Assembly (NCBI RefSeq): GCF_055900595.2
Contig: NZ_CM148325.1
DNA: 64,000 nt
Strand: one strand, 5' to 3'
The notes beneath the pieces are model-generated. The model had not been told where the DNA came from. It saw nothing but the letters and a program-made list of their open reading frames with translations, and ran no database searches. Made by a program: the position numbers and the translations under genes. Positions 15,897-53,429 of this stretch are shown piece after piece. The stretch's first letter is position 1; each line of letters starts with the position of its first letter.

Positions 15897-16066
15897 AATG
15901 GCTCACTCAAGCTTGCTCACGATTGATTCCAGTAACAAACCGTATTGTGTAATTATTTCTATAGCAGGTCGCTATATAGGCTTGTATATATCGAATAATT
16001 TGAAAATCAAAGAGATATGTAGATTTTCACTCGAAAGTAGTATTACGTGTAAGTGAGGAGTAATTA

Positions 16067-16080
16067 TTGTTCGGTATCAA
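16067..16080 (-). promoter_or_regulatory. FNR-box-like site upstream of dmsA (TTGATACCGAACAA on the minus strand)
   Basis: matches TTGAT-N4-ATCAA consensus with one mismatch; lies 12 bp from the prophage att core. Confidence 0.5.
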
Positions 16081-16091
16081 AGGGAGACAAA

Positions 16092-16106
16092 AAAAGCGCC
16101 CGCAGG
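16092..16106. repeat. att core copy, integrase-proximal
   Basis: exact 15-mer shared with 53386..53400. Confidence 0.8.
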
Positions 16107-16192
16107 AGATTTAACGGTACTTACTCCTCTTGCTGATTTCCTTATTTTTCAATAAGTAAACAAAAACAAGGGGAGCAAATTATCACAAATAA

Positions 16193-17197
16193 TTACTGGT
16201 CGATGGACAGTTTATGGACACTTTCAGCCAGCGGATTAAAGCTGATCGCATCCTGTAAAAAGTCCGGTGAAAAATGCGCATACGTCATCGTTTGCTGAAT
16301 CGTGGCGTGACCCAGGATCCTCTGCAACGTGACGATGTTCCCGCCGTTCATCATGAAATGCGTGGCGAACGTGTGCCGCATGACATGCGTGGCCTGCCCT
16401 TTGGGTAAGTCGGGCTTCACCTCCTGAAGGATCTCCCTGAAACTGAGATAATCAACCTGATATAACAGGCCGGTCCGGCGGGTTTTAATTAACGGCACAA
16501 CGGAATCAGCTACAGGAACCGAGCGCGATTTCCCGTTCTTTGTGTTAAAGAACGTCACCCTGTTACCCACGATGTGTTCCCCGCGAAGCGTTGACGCCTC
16601 TTTCCATCTGGCCCCGGTCGAAAGGCACAGAATGGCAATGCGTCGTGCATCACCCTCAAGCCGTTTCAGAAGGCGATCAATCTCGTCATCTGAAAGAAAG
16701 GCCATTTCTGTATTCTGAACCTTGAGTTTACGTATTCCGCGCACAGGGTTTTCGTTATGATAAACCTCCGCGTCAATTAACAACGAAAACATCGCAGATA
16801 AGGCGCACAGGTCGCGATTGATACTGGACGGCATCAGTCCCGCCTGCAACTTATCCGAGCGATACTCAATCACGAATTTTCGTGTCATCTGGCTGGCGCG
16901 CGGGTCCCCCATTTCACGTATCACCTTCTCCAGTCTGGTTCTGTAGGTATCACCATATGCCTGATTACGACCATCAAGCATCCACCACACCTCAATCAGT
17001 TCTGATAACCGCCGTTGATCGGCGGGCCTTGCCTGCCACGGGTTATTGTGGAAATTCTGAAGAACGTATCTTTCGAATTCCTGCGCCTTTGATTTCAGGG
17101 TGAAAATCTTACGAATCCGCCTTCCTCCCGCCCCCTGAGGCCTTACATCAACCTGATAACGTCCGTCTTTGAGTTGCTTAATCGACATGATCAGCAC
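16193..17197 (-). CDS. int: P2-family tyrosine integrase
   Basis: P2 Int-like sequence (KQLKDGRYQVDVRP..., ILCLSTGARW..., catalytic region HVMRHTFATHFMMNGGNIVTLQRILGH...YAHF); true start may be the MSIKQL Met. Confidence 0.9.
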   Translation of the reverse strand: MLIMSIKQLKDGRYQVDVRPQGAGGRRIRKIFTLKSKAQEFERYVLQNFHNNPWQARPADQRRLSELIEVWWMLDGRNQAYGDTYRTRLEKVIREMGDPRASQMTRKFVIEYRSDKLQAGLMPSSINRDLCALSAMFSLLIDAEVYHNENPVRGIRKLKVQNTEMAFLSDDEIDRLLKRLEGDARRIAILCLSTGARWKEASTLRGEHIVGNRVTFFNTKNGKSRSVPVADSVVPLIKTRRTGLLYQVDYLSFREILQEVKPDLPKGQATHVMRHTFATHFMMNGGNIVTLQRILGHATIQQTMTYAHFSPDFLQDAISFNPLAESVHKLSIDQ

Positions 17198-21547: not shown

Positions 21548-21638
21548 GTAACCACTATGCACACACAAAAAAACCGCTTGCCATGCCGCAATCAGTCAGG
21601 TTACATTTCCGCTGCACCTCATAAAACGGGTGCCGGGA

Positions 21639-21833
21639 TTGCAACCCCCGCTGACAACTACAGCGCACAACCGCGCCAGCGGTTTTTTTGTGCGTACCGT
21701 ATCGCCACGTCTTTTTCGCGCCAGAATTATGGCGGGGCGTATGGGGCCGACTTCGGTCGGGCCGGTTTCTGTAGTTGCCGGTGGTTGCAACCCTGTACGT
21801 CTCGCCACCCAGAATTGCAACCTCTGGATGGTG
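21639..21833. repeat. TTGCAAC direct repeats (4 copies; three at ~30-bp spacing upstream of the 21868 gene)
   Basis: copies at 21639, 21766, 21796, 21827 in a ~320-bp noncoding stretch. Confidence 0.6.
21669..21690 (+). terminator. hairpin plus T-run (ACCGCGCCAGCGGTTTTTTT)
   Basis: GC stem followed by seven T. Confidence 0.45.
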
Positions 21834-48220: not shown

Positions 48221-48285
48221 AAAACAGCCATTCAACGCCGCTGCGGTGCATGAAACCATTACAGAACGCACCAGGAGAGAACACC

Positions 48286-49377
48286 ATGAAAGAGCTGTCA
48301 GTTACCGTTCCGTCACCGGATATCGACATCACCATCAACAACAACACACTGGCAAACCTCACAGAGCGACTCATGACGCTGACCCTGACGGATAACCGGG
48401 CCTTTGAGGCAGACCGCGTCACCCTCACCCTTGACGATACGGACGGGCAGTTACAGTTGCCACCACGTGGCGCACGCCTGAGAGTGATGATTGGCTGGCG
48501 AGGAGAATCACTGGTTAACAAGGGCACCTACGTCGTTGATGAGGTTGCGTGGGAAGGACCTCCAGATAAACTGATCATCACCGCCAGCAGCGCAGATTTT
48601 CGGGAAGAGTTCAACGTGAGGCGGGAGGTATCCTGGCACGACGTGACCGTAAAACAGGTTGTGTCAGCCATCGCTCACCGCTACGGCCTGAAGACACAGA
48701 TAAGCGAAATCCTCATGGATATCGAAATTGACCACGCTGACCAGACCGAAGAGAGCGATATATCCTTCCTGACCCGCATGGCTGAAATGCTGGGTGCGAT
48801 TGCCACCGTAAAAAACGGCAGCCTGTTATTCATTCTGCCGGGTGGCGGAACCGGGCCGGACGGAAGAGCCCTGCCTTCGTTCGCCATTACCCGCAGCAGC
48901 GGCGACAGTCACCGCTTTCGCATTGCTGACCGTGATGCGTATACGGGGGTCCGGGCGCACTGGCTCGATCTGAAGTTCGGGCAAAAGAAAAAAGTGAACG
49001 TGAAGCGACGCAGGGAAGCCGGGAAACAGAAACAGGAGAAGAGCAGCAGCCGGGAGGGTGATTACATGGAAGGCGCGGAAGGGAACGTCTACGTTCTGCG
49101 CAGGACTTACCAGAATGAAGAAACCGCACGACGTGCAGCTGCGGCAAAGTGGCAGGAGTTACAGCGGGGAGCAGCGGCATTCTCCATCACTCTGGCACGG
49201 GGTCGTGCCGACCTGTATCCCGAAATGCACGGCAGGGTAACAGGTTTTAAAAGCGAGGTGGACAATCAGGACTGGATTATTGCCAGGGTGGAGCACATCA
49301 TAGATGAAAGCGGCTTCACCACACAACTGGAGCTGGAAGCGAAAATCCCCGAATGGATAGCAGATTCAGGCGGATAA
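48286..49377 (+). CDS. D: tail protein D (late control D family)
   Basis: about 363 aa from MKELSVTVPSP (ORF opens at 48250). Confidence 0.8.
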   Translation: MKELSVTVPSPDIDITINNNTLANLTERLMTLTLTDNRAFEADRVTLTLDDTDGQLQLPPRGARLRVMIGWRGESLVNKGTYVVDEVAWEGPPDKLIITASSADFREEFNVRREVSWHDVTVKQVVSAIAHRYGLKTQISEILMDIEIDHADQTEESDISFLTRMAEMLGAIATVKNGSLLFILPGGGTGPDGRALPSFAITRSSGDSHRFRIADRDAYTGVRAHWLDLKFGQKKKVNVKRRREAGKQKQEKSSSREGDYMEGAEGNVYVLRRTYQNEETARRAAAAKWQELQRGAAAFSITLARGRADLYPEMHGRVTGFKSEVDNQDWIIARVEHIIDESGFTTQLELEAKIPEWIADSGG

Positions 49378-49420: not shown

Positions 49421-49672
49421 ATGTTCCGTTGTCCCCTATGCGGTGCATCCGCACGTATCCGCACCAGTCGCAATGAAAATGATTCAGGCACAGTTCGCCT
49501 GAAGTACTACCAGTGCAATAACCTCGAATGCGGGATCGGCTTTACCACACTGGAGGGTTTTAACAAATTCACATCAAAACGCGCCCCGTCGCCGCAGGGT
49601 ACAGAGCGGATACCGTGGGAAGATTTTCCGGGATCTCACAGGGGGAATACTCAGATTAATCTTGATATTTAA
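49421..49672 (+). CDS. ogr: Ogr/Delta-family zinc-finger late transcription activator
   Basis: 83 aa; CPLC...C..NLEC zinc-binding arrangement like P2 Ogr. Confidence 0.85.
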   Translation: MFRCPLCGASARIRTSRNENDSGTVRLKYYQCNNLECGIGFTTLEGFNKFTSKRAPSPQGTERIPWEDFPGSHRGNTQINLDI

Positions 49673-49784
49673 GAACAATAATCAGGTTGAGAGGACATCA
49701 TAAGGCAAGTAGATTAACGGCAGATACTTTCCCGCAACCACGGGCAAGTATTTAATTATCCATGATGAAATATGACCTAAATTG

Positions 49785-49817
49785 TTTTTTGCCCGCCGGA
49801 AAGCGGGCATTTTTTTA
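49785..49817 (+). terminator. terminator hairpin copy 1 (GCCCGCCGGAAAGCGGGC plus T-run)
   Basis: first of nine near-identical hairpins in 49.8-53.0 kb. Confidence 0.7.
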
Positions 49818-50030
49818 TTCTTTTGTGGTTATGGGGTCATCAGGAACCACGTGCAGATTATATTTTTGTTTTTTTGGCGTTCCTCCGGCAGCAACGAGTT
49901 CATCAATAAGACACTGACACGCCTGAACATCCCGGGCATGTCTTAGTTTCACCTTTATTGATTTAACCTTATCCTCACCGGAGGAGAAATGCAGTTCAAT
50001 CTCAATATCGTTTCTTCGGAACAATCTCAT
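49815..50030 (-). CDS. 71-aa hypothetical protein, intact copy of a repeated gene
   Basis: MRLFRRNDIEIELHFSSGEDKVKSIKVKLRHARDVQACQCLIDELVAAGGTPKKQKYNLHVVPDDPITTKE; decayed paralogues at 51101..51199 and 51784..51855. Confidence 0.55.
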   Translation of the reverse strand: MRLFRRNDIEIELHFSSGEDKVKSIKVKLRHARDVQACQCLIDELVAAGGTPKKQKYNLHVVPDDPITTKE

Positions 50031-50123
50031 ACGCCCCCTGAATATATCAGAAATACTAGTATCGAAAAATGAGAAAACAGTTAGACAGGAGAAACATATT
50101 AACACAAATCATTTATACCTATA

Positions 50124-50141
50124 GATGAAATTATAATTTCA
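50124..50141. promoter_or_regulatory. perfect 18-bp palindrome ATGAAATTATAATTTCAT with embedded TATAAT
   Basis: about 95 bp upstream of the 71-aa gene; related imperfect palindromes upstream of the decayed copies. Confidence 0.55.
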
Positions 50142-50250
50142 TTCATGAATATGATAGATAACTATATTGTGAACAAAATGAAAAATGGCTAAATTAAAAA
50201 TGGGCATGGAGGAATGCCCGGTTATCAATATAATGTGACGTAGATCATTG

Positions 50251-50281
50251 TTTTGCCCGCCGGAGAGCGGGCATTTTTTTT
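50251..50281 (+). terminator. terminator hairpin copy 2
   Basis: GCCCGCCGGAGAGCGGGC plus T7. Confidence 0.7.
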
Positions 50282-50450
50282 GCGCCTGCCATCGAGGCGC
50301 CTTCCCTGGCGCACACAAAGCAGCCCTGATTTTCCATGAAAACTTCAGGGTTGAGCTGCGGGCACAAAGTGAGTAGATTAGCTACGGGTACCTCCCCCTG
50401 ACAACAGGAAGGGTGTCCATTATCCATGATATACAAACGAAAAGTCTTGT
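50282..50450 (+). ncRNA. repeated ~170-nt structured module S1 (candidate small RNA)
   Basis: bounded by terminator hairpins; internal hairpins (GCGCC..GGCGC, CCCTGA..TCAGGG, CCTTCC..GGAAGG); four paralogous copies. Confidence 0.35.
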
Positions 50451-50481
50451 TTTTTGCCCGCCGAAGCGCGGGCATTTTTTT
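50451..50481 (+). terminator. terminator hairpin copy 3
   Basis: GCCCGCCGAAGCGCGGGC plus T-run. Confidence 0.7.
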
Positions 50482-50607
50482 ATGCATCAGACAAGATACA
50501 GCCCACCCCAACTGACACCTGAAATATTGCCGCAACAAAAAGAAACAGTTAAATTACGCGCGGGTGCCTTTCGGCTGATGGCCGGAGGGAAAACCTGAAG
50601 GCCGGAT

Positions 50608-50841
50608 GTGGAAAGGCCCCGGAAAACATTTCTGTTTAACCGAGGCCCTAACCGCATTACCTTGACAAGTGAAAGGTTAGCGCCTCTCCGGAAAAGGAGC
50701 AAGTGCTATGTCGCAAAAATCGCTTACGGCCATCACGTTCTGCGTGACGGCAATCCTCATCATCTGGATATTGCACGGTTCGCTGTGCGAAATACGGATG
50801 AGCTTCTGGGGAGCGGAGTTTGCGGCGTTCTTACAATGTAA
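50608..50841 (+). CDS. mok-like overlapping reading frame of hok locus
   Basis: 77-aa ORF starting upstream of and overlapping the hok-like frame, as in hok/mok/sok loci. Confidence 0.5.
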   Translation: MERPRKTFLFNRGPNRITLTSERLAPLRKRSKCYVAKIAYGHHVLRDGNPHHLDIARFAVRNTDELLGSGVCGVLTM

Positions 50842-50848
50842 GAAGTAA
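50708..50848 (+). CDS. hok: Hok/Gef-family type I toxin (intact)
   Basis: 46 aa MSQKSLTAITFCVTAILIIWILHGSLCEIRMSFWGAEFAAFLQCKK; single TM plus conserved SLCEIR motif; 5' GGGTGCCT (50552) complementary to 3' AGGCACCC (50906). Confidence 0.8.
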   Translation: MSQKSLTAITFCVTAILIIWILHGSLCEIRMSFWGAEFAAFLQCKK

Positions 50849-50934
50849 GGAAACCGCGACGGGGGAGCAATCCCCCGTCAATCGGTTGCCAGGGTAAGGT
50901 CGATAAGGCACCCTATCTCACAGACATGAACAAC

Positions 50935-50970
50935 AAACCCGCAGCATAAAAACTGCGGGTTTTCTTTTTG
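50935..50970 (+). terminator. rho-independent terminator of hok transcript
   Basis: AACCCGCAG-CATAAAAA-CTGCGGGTT followed by TTCTTTTT. Confidence 0.7.
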
Positions 50971-51100
50971 GTGTCCTCACCGACTTGAAACAGTGATCAG
51001 ACTATAAGACAAAGCCCGCAATGTTGCGGGCTTACTCTACCTCTCGAAAATGTGGTCACTGCGTGGACATACGCTGATACAAATCCTTTATATCAATAAA

Positions 51101-51199
51101 TTAAATCTTTGTTTTTTTCATCAACAATGATTTAACCTTATCCTCACCGGAGGAGAAATGCAGTTCAATCTCAATATCGTTTCTGTGGAACAGCCTCAT
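51101..51199 (-). pseudogene. truncated paralogue of the 71-aa gene
   Basis: MRLFHRNDIEIELHFSSGEDKVKS then divergent and stop after 32 codons; retains AGGAGG RBS. Confidence 0.55.
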
Positions 51200-51414
51200 A
51201 AGACAACCTCCTGAATTCATCAGAAACACAGTCAACTGAAAACCAGAAAGCAGACAAACAGTGGACACACATTAATACAAATCATTTATACCTATAGATG
51301 AAATTGCAGTTTCATCTATAACATGACAGGTAACAATATTGTGAAAAAACTCAAAACTCGTTAGATTAAAGACGGACAGAGCAATGCTACTTTATCAATA
51401 ACATGTAACCTGTA

Positions 51415-51445
51415 CTTCCTTATTTTGCCCGCCGAAGCACGGGCA
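51415..51445 (+). terminator. terminator hairpin copy 4
   Basis: GCCCGCCGAAGCACGGGC plus T-run. Confidence 0.7.
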
Positions 51446-51621
51446 TTTTTTTTGCGCCTGCCATCGAGGCGCCTTCCCTGGCGCACACAAAGCAGCCCTG
51501 ATTTTCCATGAAAACTTCAGGGTTGAGCCAAAAGCACAAAGACAGTAGATTAACCACGGGTGCCTTCCACCTGACAACAGGAAGGGTGTCCAGTATCAAT
51601 GACAGACAACTCACATTGCTG
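51446..51621 (+). ncRNA. structured module S2
   Basis: paralogue of S1. Confidence 0.35.
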
Positions 51622-51651
51622 TTTTGCCCGCCGGAAAGCGGGCATTTTTTT
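51622..51651 (+). terminator. terminator hairpin copy 5
   Basis: GCCCGCCGGAAAGCGGGC plus T-run. Confidence 0.7.
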
Positions 51652-51783
51652 ATTCTTTTGTGGTTATTGGGTCATCAGGAACAACATGCAGATTATGCTT
51701 TGATTTTTTTGGTGTTATTACAGCAGCAACGAGTTTATTAATAAGACACTGACATGCCTGAACATCCCTGACATATCATAATT

Positions 51784-51855
51784 TCACTTTATTTTTTTAG
51801 CTTGTCCTTTCTGGAGCAGAAATATCTCAACATCGTTTCTGTGGAACAACCTCAT
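51784..51855 (-). pseudogene. decayed paralogue of the 71-aa gene
   Basis: MRLFHRNDVEIF then frameshift; 3' region still alignable to the intact copy. Confidence 0.5.
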
Positions 51856-52071
51856 TTGCCCCTGAATGTATCATAAATATCAGCATCGGAAAACCAACAG
51901 CAATACAGAAGAAACATGTTAATGCAAATCACTTATACCTATAGATGAAATTACAGTTTTGTTCATAAATATGATAAGTAACTATATTGTGAATAAAATG
52001 AAAACTAGCTAAATTAAACGTGGGCATGGTGGAATGCCTCGTAATCAATAATACATGATCCGTACTTCCTT

Positions 52072-52102
52072 GTTTTGCCCGCCGGAAAGCGGGCATTTTT
52101 TT
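52072..52102 (+). terminator. terminator hairpin copy 6
   Basis: same hairpin. Confidence 0.7.
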
Positions 52103-52270
52103 GGCGGTTACCATCGCCTCACCTTCCTGGTTCACATGAAGCAACCCTGATTTTCCATGAAAACTTCAGGGTTGAGACAAAAGCACAAAGACAGTAGATT
52201 AACCACGGGTACCTTCCACCTGACAACAGGAAGGCTGTCCAGTATCAATGACAGACAACTCACATTGCTG
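52103..52270 (+). ncRNA. structured module S3
   Basis: paralogue of S1/S2. Confidence 0.35.
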
Positions 52271-52299
52271 TTTTGCCCGCCGGAAAGCGGGCTTTTTTT
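52271..52299 (+). terminator. terminator hairpin copy 7
   Basis: same hairpin, T-run after GGGC. Confidence 0.7.
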
Positions 52300-52471
52300 G
52301 GCAGTTATCATAGCCGCACCTTCCTGGCACATATGAAGCAACCCTGATTTTCCATGAAAACTTCAGGGTTGAGACAAAAGCACAAAAACAGTAGATTAAC
52401 CACGGGTGCCTGCCACCTGACAACAGGAAGGGGTGTCCATTATCCATGATATACAAACGAAAAGTCTTGTC
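52300..52471 (+). ncRNA. structured module S4
   Basis: paralogue, 3' end like S1. Confidence 0.35.
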
Positions 52472-52501
52472 TTTTGCCCGCCAAAGCGCGGGCATTTTTT
52501 T
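52472..52501 (+). terminator. terminator hairpin copy 8
   Basis: GCCCGCCAAAGCGCGGGC plus T-run. Confidence 0.7.
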
Positions 52502-52712
52502 ATGCATCAGACAAGATACAGCCCACCCCAACTAACACCTGAAATATTGCCGCAACAAAAAGAAACGGGTGCCTTTCGGCTGATGGCCGGAGGGAAAACC
52601 TGAAGACCGGATGTGGAAAGGCCCCGGAAAACATCTGTGTTTAACCGAGGCCTGACCCTTCCTACCGTGACAAGTGGAAGGTTAGCGCCTCTTTGTAAAA
52701 GGAGCAAGCGCT

Positions 52713-52853
52713 ATACCGCAAAAAACGATTATTGTTGGCATTTTATGCCTGACAATAACCCTGGTCATCTGGATGGTCCACGATTCGTTATGTGAATTCA
52801 GCTTTGATATCTGAGGAGCGCGTTTTGCGGCGTTCTTGCAGTGTAAACCGTAA
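52713..52853 (+). pseudogene. hok-like toxin pseudogene (second copy)
   Basis: paralogous to 50708..50848 but start codon is ATA and an in-frame TGA replaces the Trp codon; mok-like frame 52613..52795 retained. Confidence 0.7.
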
Positions 52854-52948
52854 GAAACCGCAGCGGGGGAGAAATTCCCCGCTATCCGGTTGTTGGGGTG
52901 GGCCGATATGGCGCCCTTTCCCTGTAGAGACAAAACAAAAAACCAGAT

Positions 52949-52975
52949 TTGCCCGCCATTGAGAGGGCTTTTTTG
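52949..52975 (+). terminator. degenerate terminator hairpin copy 9
   Basis: GCCCGCCATTGAGAGGGC plus T6. Confidence 0.45.
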
Positions 52976-53003
52976 TCACCCTCACCAGTGAGGGCATCAT
53001 CAT

Positions 53004-53231
53004 TCAGAGGCGCGTAAGCCACCCGGCGTTAACATCCTGCCTGTCAACCCTGGCCGCAGAGTCTGAACGGCAGGTACCGGAAGGAGTACCAAAAACATCC
53101 CTGACAAGTTCCGCCACCTTCCCGATATCATCAGGTGTCACATTCCTCACCTCGGCCGTGATCCGTGGCGTACCATCATCGTTAACAAGAGTGGCTTTAA
53201 AGCTGGTGCGAAGGGAAAACAACATCAACAT
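53004..53231 (-). CDS. hypothetical small protein at prophage end (75 aa)
   Basis: RBS AGGGAGGGG upstream of ATG; last ORF inside the att boundary. Confidence 0.4.
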   Translation of the reverse strand: MLMLFSLRTSFKATLVNDDGTPRITAEVRNVTPDDIGKVAELVRDVFGTPSGTCRSDSAARVDRQDVNAGWLTRL

Positions 53232-53385
53232 CCCCTCCCTTTGGTTCGTTGCACTGACGGCACGACACCATCAGGAAAAAGAAAAGCCCACAACGTCAGT
53301 ATTGTGGACTTTTTTCTTCAAAGATGGACATTATCTGGACACATGAAAATAAAATCCATTTATTTTCATATAGTTAAGTACCATG

Positions 53386-53400
53386 CAAAAGCGCCCGCAG
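53386..53400. repeat. att core copy, serS-proximal (forms the serS terminator hairpin)
   Basis: AAAAGCGCCCGCAGG identical to 16092..16106; continues as GCGCTTTTT. Confidence 0.8.
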
Positions 53401-53429
53401 GCGCTTTTTAGATTCAGAAAAATTGGGTA

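Follow-up and report, generated by a model that had tools for sequence, protein, structure and literature searches.

The 64,000-nucleotide stretch of Escherichia coli chromosome analysed here (contig NZ_CM148325.1; hereafter the window) carries a P2-type prophage of ~37 kb, integrated between dmsA/STnc130 and serS and bordered by direct repeats of AAAAGCGCCCGCAGG at 16092-16106 and 53387-53401. Its closest sequenced relatives are P88-like Peduoviridae, with ~78% identity across 44% of early and head genes. At the right end of the prophage, gpD (48250-49377) and ogr (49421-49672) are followed by a 3.7-kb block and then by the right attachment site, attR. Where identical blocks occur elsewhere, the NCBI annotation pipeline PGAP marks only ogr, a 71-aa hypothetical protein, a Hok/Gef protein and serS. 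The block itself reads as a patchwork of duplicated phage-end pieces, an accessory cargo at the prophage right end in which a typical hok/sok-type locus stands among up to eight candidate small RNA (sRNA) genes.

Repeat analysis recovered each repeat class that an initial annotation of this DNA had described: a 174-nt unit in four copies (starting at 50305, 51477, 52126 and 52323), a terminator segment running from TTTGCCCGCC to GCGGGCATTTTTTT in nine (49788, 50252, 50453, 51424, 51623, 52074, 52272, 52473 and 52948), a 231-nt hok segment in two (50561 and 52566; 81% identity) and the start region of a 71-aa gene in three. Beyond these, the block holds a further module copy directly after ogr, a three-copy second RNA family, a 73/75-aa open reading frame (ORF) and an attachment-arm relic. 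Terminator-like sites are 3.5-fold enriched, with 17 found against 4.9 ± 2.4 in shuffled sequence. A terminator scan called eight of the nine family terminators and passed over the one at 52951, whose stem is degenerate. Eight of the nine close a promoter-terminator unit on the plus strand and the ninth closes a dead hok copy. Differences among the family terminators fall mostly in the loops.

The modules of ~170 bp had been described as four hairpin-rich units, each ending in this terminator. The terminator endings hold, but a fifth copy at 49687-49816 had been missed, and the modules are better parsed as eight promoter-plus-terminator candidate sRNA genes, five in a family that we call A and three in a second family, B. 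All eight lie on the plus strand. The missed copy, A1 (49687-49816), has a −35 box TTGAGA at 49687, a −10 box TAGATT at 49710, a predicted start at ~49722 and a terminator at 49790-49809 followed by a U-run; it is also the first terminator after ogr, and its predicted fold has a free energy of −27.7 kcal/mol (z −3.4). Repeats, scans, alignment and folding delineate A2 (50351-50481) and A3 (51523-51651), and a promoter called by the scan, together with alignment and folding, delineates A4 (52172-52299) and A5 (52369-52501). In family B, B1 (50167-50281) combines a promoter TTGTGA-N17-TAAATT, a predicted start at ~50202 and a terminator at 50254-50273, supported by alignment, terminator scan and fold. 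Alignment and fold indicate that B2 (51339-51453) has kept promoter and terminator with a degraded 5′ hairpin, and B3 (51987-52102) emerges from scan, alignment and fold.

The candidate genes share a common architecture. Family A promoters follow TTGAG(A/C)-N17-TAGATT and family B promoters TTGTGA-N17-TA(A/G)ATT. Aligning the five A copies reveals invariant islands, GGTTGAG, a 17-bp spacer and AGTAGATTA, followed by ~95 nt to the shared terminator; the three B copies align over ~80 nt from promoter to the same terminator. The −35 box, the −10 box and the 17-bp spacing are kept in eight of eight copies, with spacer and flanks diverging, most in A1. A consensus scan independently called three of the A promoters, although the total for the region, nine, is not above the 7.4 of shuffles. 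Each of the eight same-strand intrinsic terminators sits 80-100 nt after a promoter. The predicted RNAs (80-100 nt) would open with a 5′ hairpin and continue through 30-40 unstructured nucleotides and UUUU into a GC-rich terminator hairpin with a tail of seven or eight U: TTTT stands directly 5′ of every terminator stem, and eight terminators have tails of 7-8 T. A U-rich stretch, a terminator and a U-tail are the usual build of Hfq-dependent base-pairing sRNAs.

Two parts of these genes behave differently. Across six distinct A sequences, the proposed 5′ hairpin has 92% of cells paired, compared with 35-59% when the partners are slid, and two of its pairs carry double changes; A1 keeps the shape with different sequence. 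A1 has indeed diverged nearly everywhere except in its −35 and −10 boxes, hairpin shape, a short motif and the terminator. The middle stretch is a mosaic: A2 matches A5, A3 matches A4, and A1 has its own version. A sixth A copy (A6), from related prophages integrated at copA, carries a variant of the A3/A4 stretch, and the three B copies of the window all differ, giving approximately six versions of the variable stretch overall (three or four in A, three in B). A coding reading of the modules was rejected, as their ORFs read through the terminators and are not in the same frame from copy to copy. In four A copies a conserved imperfect palindrome, CCCTGATTTTCCATGAAAACTTCAGGG, immediately precedes the −35 box (50305-50350, 51477-51522, 52126-52171 and 52323-52368). 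It is absent from A1 and altered in one copy of the copA lineage (locus L003); it was not recognised as any known site and could be a regulator binding site.

The hok/mok-type toxin locus had been proposed to exist as one intact and one inactivated copy, and both are there. The intact, hokW-like copy, hok1 (50527-50965, plus strand), has a promoter TTGCCG-N17-TAAATT (50527-50555), a mok frame (50608-50841) overlapping hok (50708-50848) in another frame, and a terminator at 50935-50962. A PHROG search places the Hok ORF in family 251, 'MokW-like host killing' (E 8.5e-22), and PGAP assigns it to the Hok/Gef family; its score against the NCBIfam HokA model is 30.7 bits with a cut-off of 89, and it is therefore, by these matches, a family member and no HokA equivalog. 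The 5′ (tac) end of the predicted mRNA, GGGUGCCUU, lies at 50562, with the tac 9-mer GGGTGCCTT at 50562-50570, and a 3′ fold-back element (fbi), AAGGCACCC, complementary to the 5′ end, can be read at 50905-50913. The Rfam sok model RF01794 scores 46.2 bits (E 3.7e-8; gathering score 59), a minus-strand promoter was spotted by eye only, and the Sok antisense RNA presumably lies at ~50590-50660. Identity with the corresponding hok region reaches 90-95% in P88-like phages and ~81% in Shiga toxin (Stx) phages. We take hok1 to be an ordinary, typical and intact hok/sok-type locus with predicted toxin activity. The second copy, hok2 (52566-52975, plus strand; Rfam sok 42.8 bits; repeats D3, D8 and D14), is inactivated by a 15-nt deletion that takes out the −10 box, an ATG-to-ATA change that abolishes the start codon and a nonsense change from TGG to TGA. 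Its tail is an A-type promoter relic (alignment of GAGACAAAAGCACAAAAACAG with GAGACAAAACAAAAAACCAG, z 4.5) fused onto the degenerate member of the terminator family, the ninth (52948-52974). Repeat D8 (98% identity) shows the junction of A2 with hok1 and that of A5 with hok2 to be duplicates of one unit.

The 71-aa gene is present, as had been described, in one intact and two decayed copies, all on the minus strand: p71 (49815-50030; hypothetical protein WP_001236182.1), a truncated p71′ (51101-51199; ORF list and repeat D12, 89% identity) and a frameshifted p71″ (51660-51855; repeats D4 and D13). The statement that neither the modules nor this protein belong to a named family also stands after Rfam, Pfam and NCBIfam searches. 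For p71 we obtained no Pfam, NCBIfam or PDB sequence match, and the only family hit, PHROG 14142 (E 4.9e-12), has no assigned function. Its only relatives, all distant, are proteins of 57 aa and longer ones of 128-133 aa that resemble it in their C-terminal part; they occur in P4-like elements and at a prophage end. The extra N-terminal domain of the longer ones had no Pfam match, and the 57-aa relatives sit beside replication repeats of P4-like satellites. At two loci (L008, 3400-4180; L012, 3990-4800), the homologue lies beside iteron-like repeats (runs of tgtaat or gtgatgg), in one case after the primase gene of a P4-like satellite and in the other at the end of an element adjoining raiA. 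An AlphaFold model of p71 predicts a beta-beta-alpha arrangement at low confidence (pLDDT 63.5), too weak for a fold search. The operator-like site proposed upstream of each copy is represented in the p71/B1 divergent control region (50088-50145) by the palindrome ATGAAATTATAATTTCAT and a stretch resembling an attachment-site arm, but the region upstream of the p71 copies also holds the three-copy second RNA family. At the far end of the block, a 73/75-aa orphan ORF (p75; 53004-53231, minus strand) adjoins the attachment site and corresponds to the hypothetical protein WP_029490443.1 in related prophages; the only homologues found were from E. coli, and the P88 ORF at the same position has no similarity to it.

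The right border (53282-53401) comprises a bidirectional terminator (53282-53313), an attachment arm TGGACA-N6-TGGACA and the attR core at 53387-53401, which is one half of the serS terminator hairpin. The hairpin into which the phage integrated terminates serS and is located at the 3′ end of STnc130, whose Rfam match (128 bits; 15987-16121, plus strand) spans attL at 16092-16106. At attR the hairpin is restored for serS. STnc130 may be left without a terminator in lysogens, because at attL the 3′ half of the hairpin is replaced by phage sequence, GCGCCCGCAGGagattt. Elsewhere, within the early region of the prophage (at 21614-21812, plus strand), an IsrK-like match (60 bits) and a C4 antisense RNA match (80 bits) both lie above their Rfam gathering scores; immunity in this P2-type phage would accordingly seem to depend on an RNA module in the style of P4/P1, as against the C/Cox switch of P88.

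The block belongs to the phage and not to its integration site. In prophages of the same type, a 2.6-kb version adjoins zapB in strain SCU-115 and a 1.3-kb version adjoins copA in strains CS5L and CM2, and the block therefore travels with the phage; these shorter versions also bear out the initial annotation in treating it as extra cargo. In SCU-115 (locus L002, 5790-5850) the core AAAAGCGCCCGCAGG recurs within another terminator-like hairpin, and the copA-site junction (L003, 5760-5860) differs from the AAAAGCGCCCGCAGG sites. The baseline of that annotation, in which ogr directly adjoins the attachment site, does not apply to the P88-like relatives, where hok, or hok with com and a methyltransferase, already sits between the two. 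P88 and Chuche share with the block both the ogr-att position and the rightmost layout (a small minus-strand ORF, terminator, arm and core), but the slot of P88 holds only hok and one ORF, and in that of Chuche (locus L099, 1232-3060) com and a DNA methyltransferase gene come after hok, in an arrangement like that of Mu mom. From the Chuche content it follows that the ogr-att slot is, as far as these sequences tell, a variable cargo site among P88-like phages.

The distribution of the A module is narrow. Among 5,426 complete E. coli genomes, 30 contain it, at 3-10 places in each, and the identical block is found in 25 complete E. coli genomes. It is also present on three IMG/VR contigs and five metagenome contigs, which added no new variants; a pattern scan of 100,044 GTDB species-representative genomes returned no A module, nor did phage collection records, and nhmmer found neither A nor B modules in 77 IMG/VR loci whose Ogr is 70-72% identical. 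Across all fetched sequences, A comes in no more than six variants and B in four or five.

Several alignments point to how the array began and grew. The promoter, start region and first ~10 nt of family A align to the promoter and 5′ end of the hok mRNA with z values of 5.7-5.8 against shuffles (5.7 for A3), and an A-module profile weakly matches the hok promoter of phage Chuche (nhmmer, E 0.019); no significant homology was found between A and the hok 3′ end. In P88-like relatives the hok promoter directly follows ogr, and in this lineage A1 lies at exactly that place. Family A therefore most likely arose from a hok locus, to judge from its homologous promoter and 5′ end. Between units, a bidirectional terminator (51012-51033) with an attachment-arm relic (50990-51130) aligns with the true attR and with the terminator and arm region of Chuche just upstream of attP and integrase; it is joined to the truncated p71′ at a short microhomology, GATTTAACC. 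The p71/B intergenic regions are likewise arm-like: repeat D9 links 50088, 51063, 51261 and 51908 with the true attR arm at 53335, and a B-module profile matches at 51065-51126 (nhmmer).

The known arrays nest by increasing length. The copA lysogens carry a minimal A1-p71-B-A6-A5b-p73 array with four intact RNA genes and no hok; SCU-115 carries A1-p71-B1-A3-p71″-B3-A4-A5-hok2-p75; and the window has the SCU-115 order with an extra 1,172-bp unit and hok1. Together with the attachment-arm relics between units, this nesting leads us to infer growth by joining and recombining phage right ends: related phages would first have had their right ends fused, tandem lysogeny with a later deletion being one conceivable route, and unequal recombination between promoter and terminator sequences that the units share would then have raised the number of units. 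The repeated duplication of a module proposed earlier is borne out in that the units are duplicated and partly decayed, but phage right ends seem to have accreted and recombined, with arm relics left between units. In a comparison with the copA lineage, identity is 99-100% over the block and 66-100% over upstream genes (100-bp bins); this pattern may reflect recombination rather than constraint.

Searches for known relatives of the candidate RNAs gave no family at threshold. With Rfam at E ≤ 1 and gathering scores, sok remained sub-threshold, and the matches of the modules to AgvB (RF02702; 23.2 bits, gathering score 56) and RyhB (RF00057; 24.4 bits, gathering score 55) were driven by the terminator, as were matches to leader families. 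A full-text literature search for the terminator sequence returned no match. The Pas sRNAs (PasA-D of enteropathogenic E. coli, EPEC) were considered and rejected: their PasA/PasD2 locus is a different one, between esterase and holin genes of a lambdoid prophage, nhmmer found no match there, and strain E2348/69 is not among the 30 genomes with an A module. A3 (51598-51651), A4 (52247-52299) and A6 share CUCACAUUGC with the conserved core of RyhB, and the same copies can fold into a small hairpin whose loop is C/A-rich, as in AgvB. The best complementarity of any variable stretch is a 13-nt perfect match of A3/A4 to 16817-16829 (plus strand), antisense to int, which is probably due to chance: ~0.05 such matches are expected per query, a number that is not negligible.

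We favour, at about an even chance of being right, a cargo block that combines an ordinary hok/sok locus with up to eight candidate Hfq-type sRNA genes in two undescribed families, one derived from a hok promoter, assembled by accretion and recombination. Under this reading, family A would have taken its promoter, start site and first ~10 nt from hok, after which units were multiplied and reshuffled at shared joints. The RNAs would be made in the lysogen, would have their Hfq-binding part in the U-rich stretch, terminator and U-tail, and would base-pair through their unstructured stretch with host or rival-phage mRNAs. The conserved promoters, the same-strand terminators, the common fold and the mosaic of swapped middle stretches on a constant scaffold speak for it, as does the minimal block, which keeps A1, p71, B, A6 and A5b intact without hok. 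A doubtful extension, which we hold far more loosely, is that A and B form a 'cassette' system in which a scaffold derived from hok carries swappable pairing stretches for quick retargeting of host or rival-phage genes. Several observations weigh against the favoured account. No target emerged: complementarity, exact or tolerant of G-U pairs, to the window, P4 and P88 was at background, and predicted duplexes with the hok1 mRNA, its antisense and the p71 and p75 mRNAs were no better than shuffles, with ogr not significant. Mimicry of RyhB was rejected, with sodB start-region pairing at z −0.3 compared with −2.4 for the RyhB control, as was an AgvB-like GcvB sponge, with GcvB R1 pairing at z −0.2 compared with −2.5 for the AgvB control; the GcvB sequence had been checked against genomes, and both positive controls stood out. 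Covariation in the A hairpin is weak across six distinct sequences, with the observed score reached by 15 of 500 shuffles, leaving the structural support suggestive and not strong, and B folds are no better than shuffles (z −0.7 to −1.1), the hairpin of B2 being lost. The very narrow spread and near absence of sequence diversity mean that conservation may simply reflect youth. Since hok and the protein genes have decayed in the duplicated units, selection on the duplicates is not evident, and the promoters may simply have been inherited from hok and have gained no new function.

Many of the same observations would be expected if the array were debris, in which phage ends and hok loci with internal deletions had recently been duplicated and piled up, whose leftover hok promoters run into leftover terminators and whose only role is to stop read-through from the prophage. 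The homology of the A promoter and 5′ end to the hok promoter fits such an origin, as does the hok2 tail, where an A promoter is fused directly to a terminator; so do the decay of p71′, p71″, hok2 and B2, the attachment-arm relics, the tiny distribution with copies near-identical everywhere, and the lack of a target in the window, P4, P88, hok, p71, p75, sodB or GcvB. We regard this, the main rival, as a possible account, if on the unlikely side, since the minimal array keeps four intact promoter-hairpin-terminator units although it lacks hok, A1 has diverged almost everywhere except in its −35 and −10 boxes, hairpin shape, short motif and terminator, all eight promoters retain boxes and spacing while nearby protein genes decay, and terminator differences fall mainly in loops. 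The hok-like 5′ ends raise another idea, in which A RNAs pair in trans with hok mRNAs, from their own or a rival phage, through the tac sequence GGGUGCCUU and a fold-back-like strand and so shift the timing of translatability. A3 and A5 do start with the same 9 nt as the hok mRNA, the exact complement of these bases, AAGGCACCC, lies in the hok 3′ end at 50905-50913, and the joint duplication of the A2-hok1 and A5-hok2 junctions (D8) associates the two. Such a role is nonetheless unlikely, because the hok-like bases are buried in a stable hairpin and have changed in A1, A2, A4 and A6 together with their own hairpin partner and not with hok, and because the minimal arrays have no hok in cis; duplex energies with the hok1 mRNA or its antisense were also no better than shuffles (z +1.4 to −2.2). 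The repeats could instead act as DNA, with palindromes and arm-like repeats binding integrase, excisionase, integration host factor (IHF) or a repressor, terminators serving as secondary attachment or recombination sites, and the RNAs incidental. The resemblance of p71-B intergenic regions to an attachment-site arm (D9), the attachment core being itself half of a terminator hairpin and the coincidence of module borders with terminators all suit this proposal, but outside GCCCGC the family terminator and the attachment core are not alike, and conserved −35 and −10 boxes and a hairpin kept through base changes would go unexplained; we consider it very improbable. The maintenance or exclusion role suggested in the initial annotation for a toxin- or RNA-based system finds no backing here: nothing ties the RNAs or p71 to either, and the minimal block has no hok.

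If the candidate genes of our favoured reading are expressed, the block would be, to our knowledge, the densest array of stand-alone sRNA genes on a P2-type phage, and it would show clearly that sRNA genes can arise from a type I toxin mRNA by way of its promoter and 5′ end. If they are silent, it would be a decaying pile-up of hok and phage ends of little wider interest. The block also offers a readable example of how cargo at a prophage end may grow by right-end accretion, leaving arm relics between units.

The candidate RNAs can be compared with several known systems. From hok/sok they differ in size and content: A RNAs of ~95 nt, compared with a hok mRNA of ~400 nt, have a different terminator and neither mok/hok frames nor the Sok-paired region, although the promoter and 5′ end of family A are homologous to those of hok1. 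OmrA/OmrB, PrrF1/PrrF2 and LhrC1-5 are tandem-duplicated sibling sRNAs, each with its own promoter and terminator. The A and B genes are likewise neighbouring paralogues with individual promoters and terminators, but sibling sets conserve the target-pairing region, whereas A and B conserve the scaffold and differ, as a mosaic, in the presumed pairing stretch; if the genes are expressed, this would be the reverse of classic sibling sRNAs. Further parallels are the Hfq-binding prophage sRNAs of pathogenic E. coli, AgvB, AsxR, Esr41, DicF and PasA-D (PMC4104026, PMC8550237, bioRxiv 10.64898/2026.05.13.724894). These too are short stand-alone genes in prophage accessory regions, with a terminator and U-tail, strain-specific and sometimes multi-copy; they reside in lambdoid phages, whereas the candidate A and B genes lie on a P2-type phage. 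In the preprint of Zhu et al. the Pas copies are not tandem (bioRxiv 10.64898/2026.05.13.724894), whereas the block described here would carry up to eight candidate genes in tandem.

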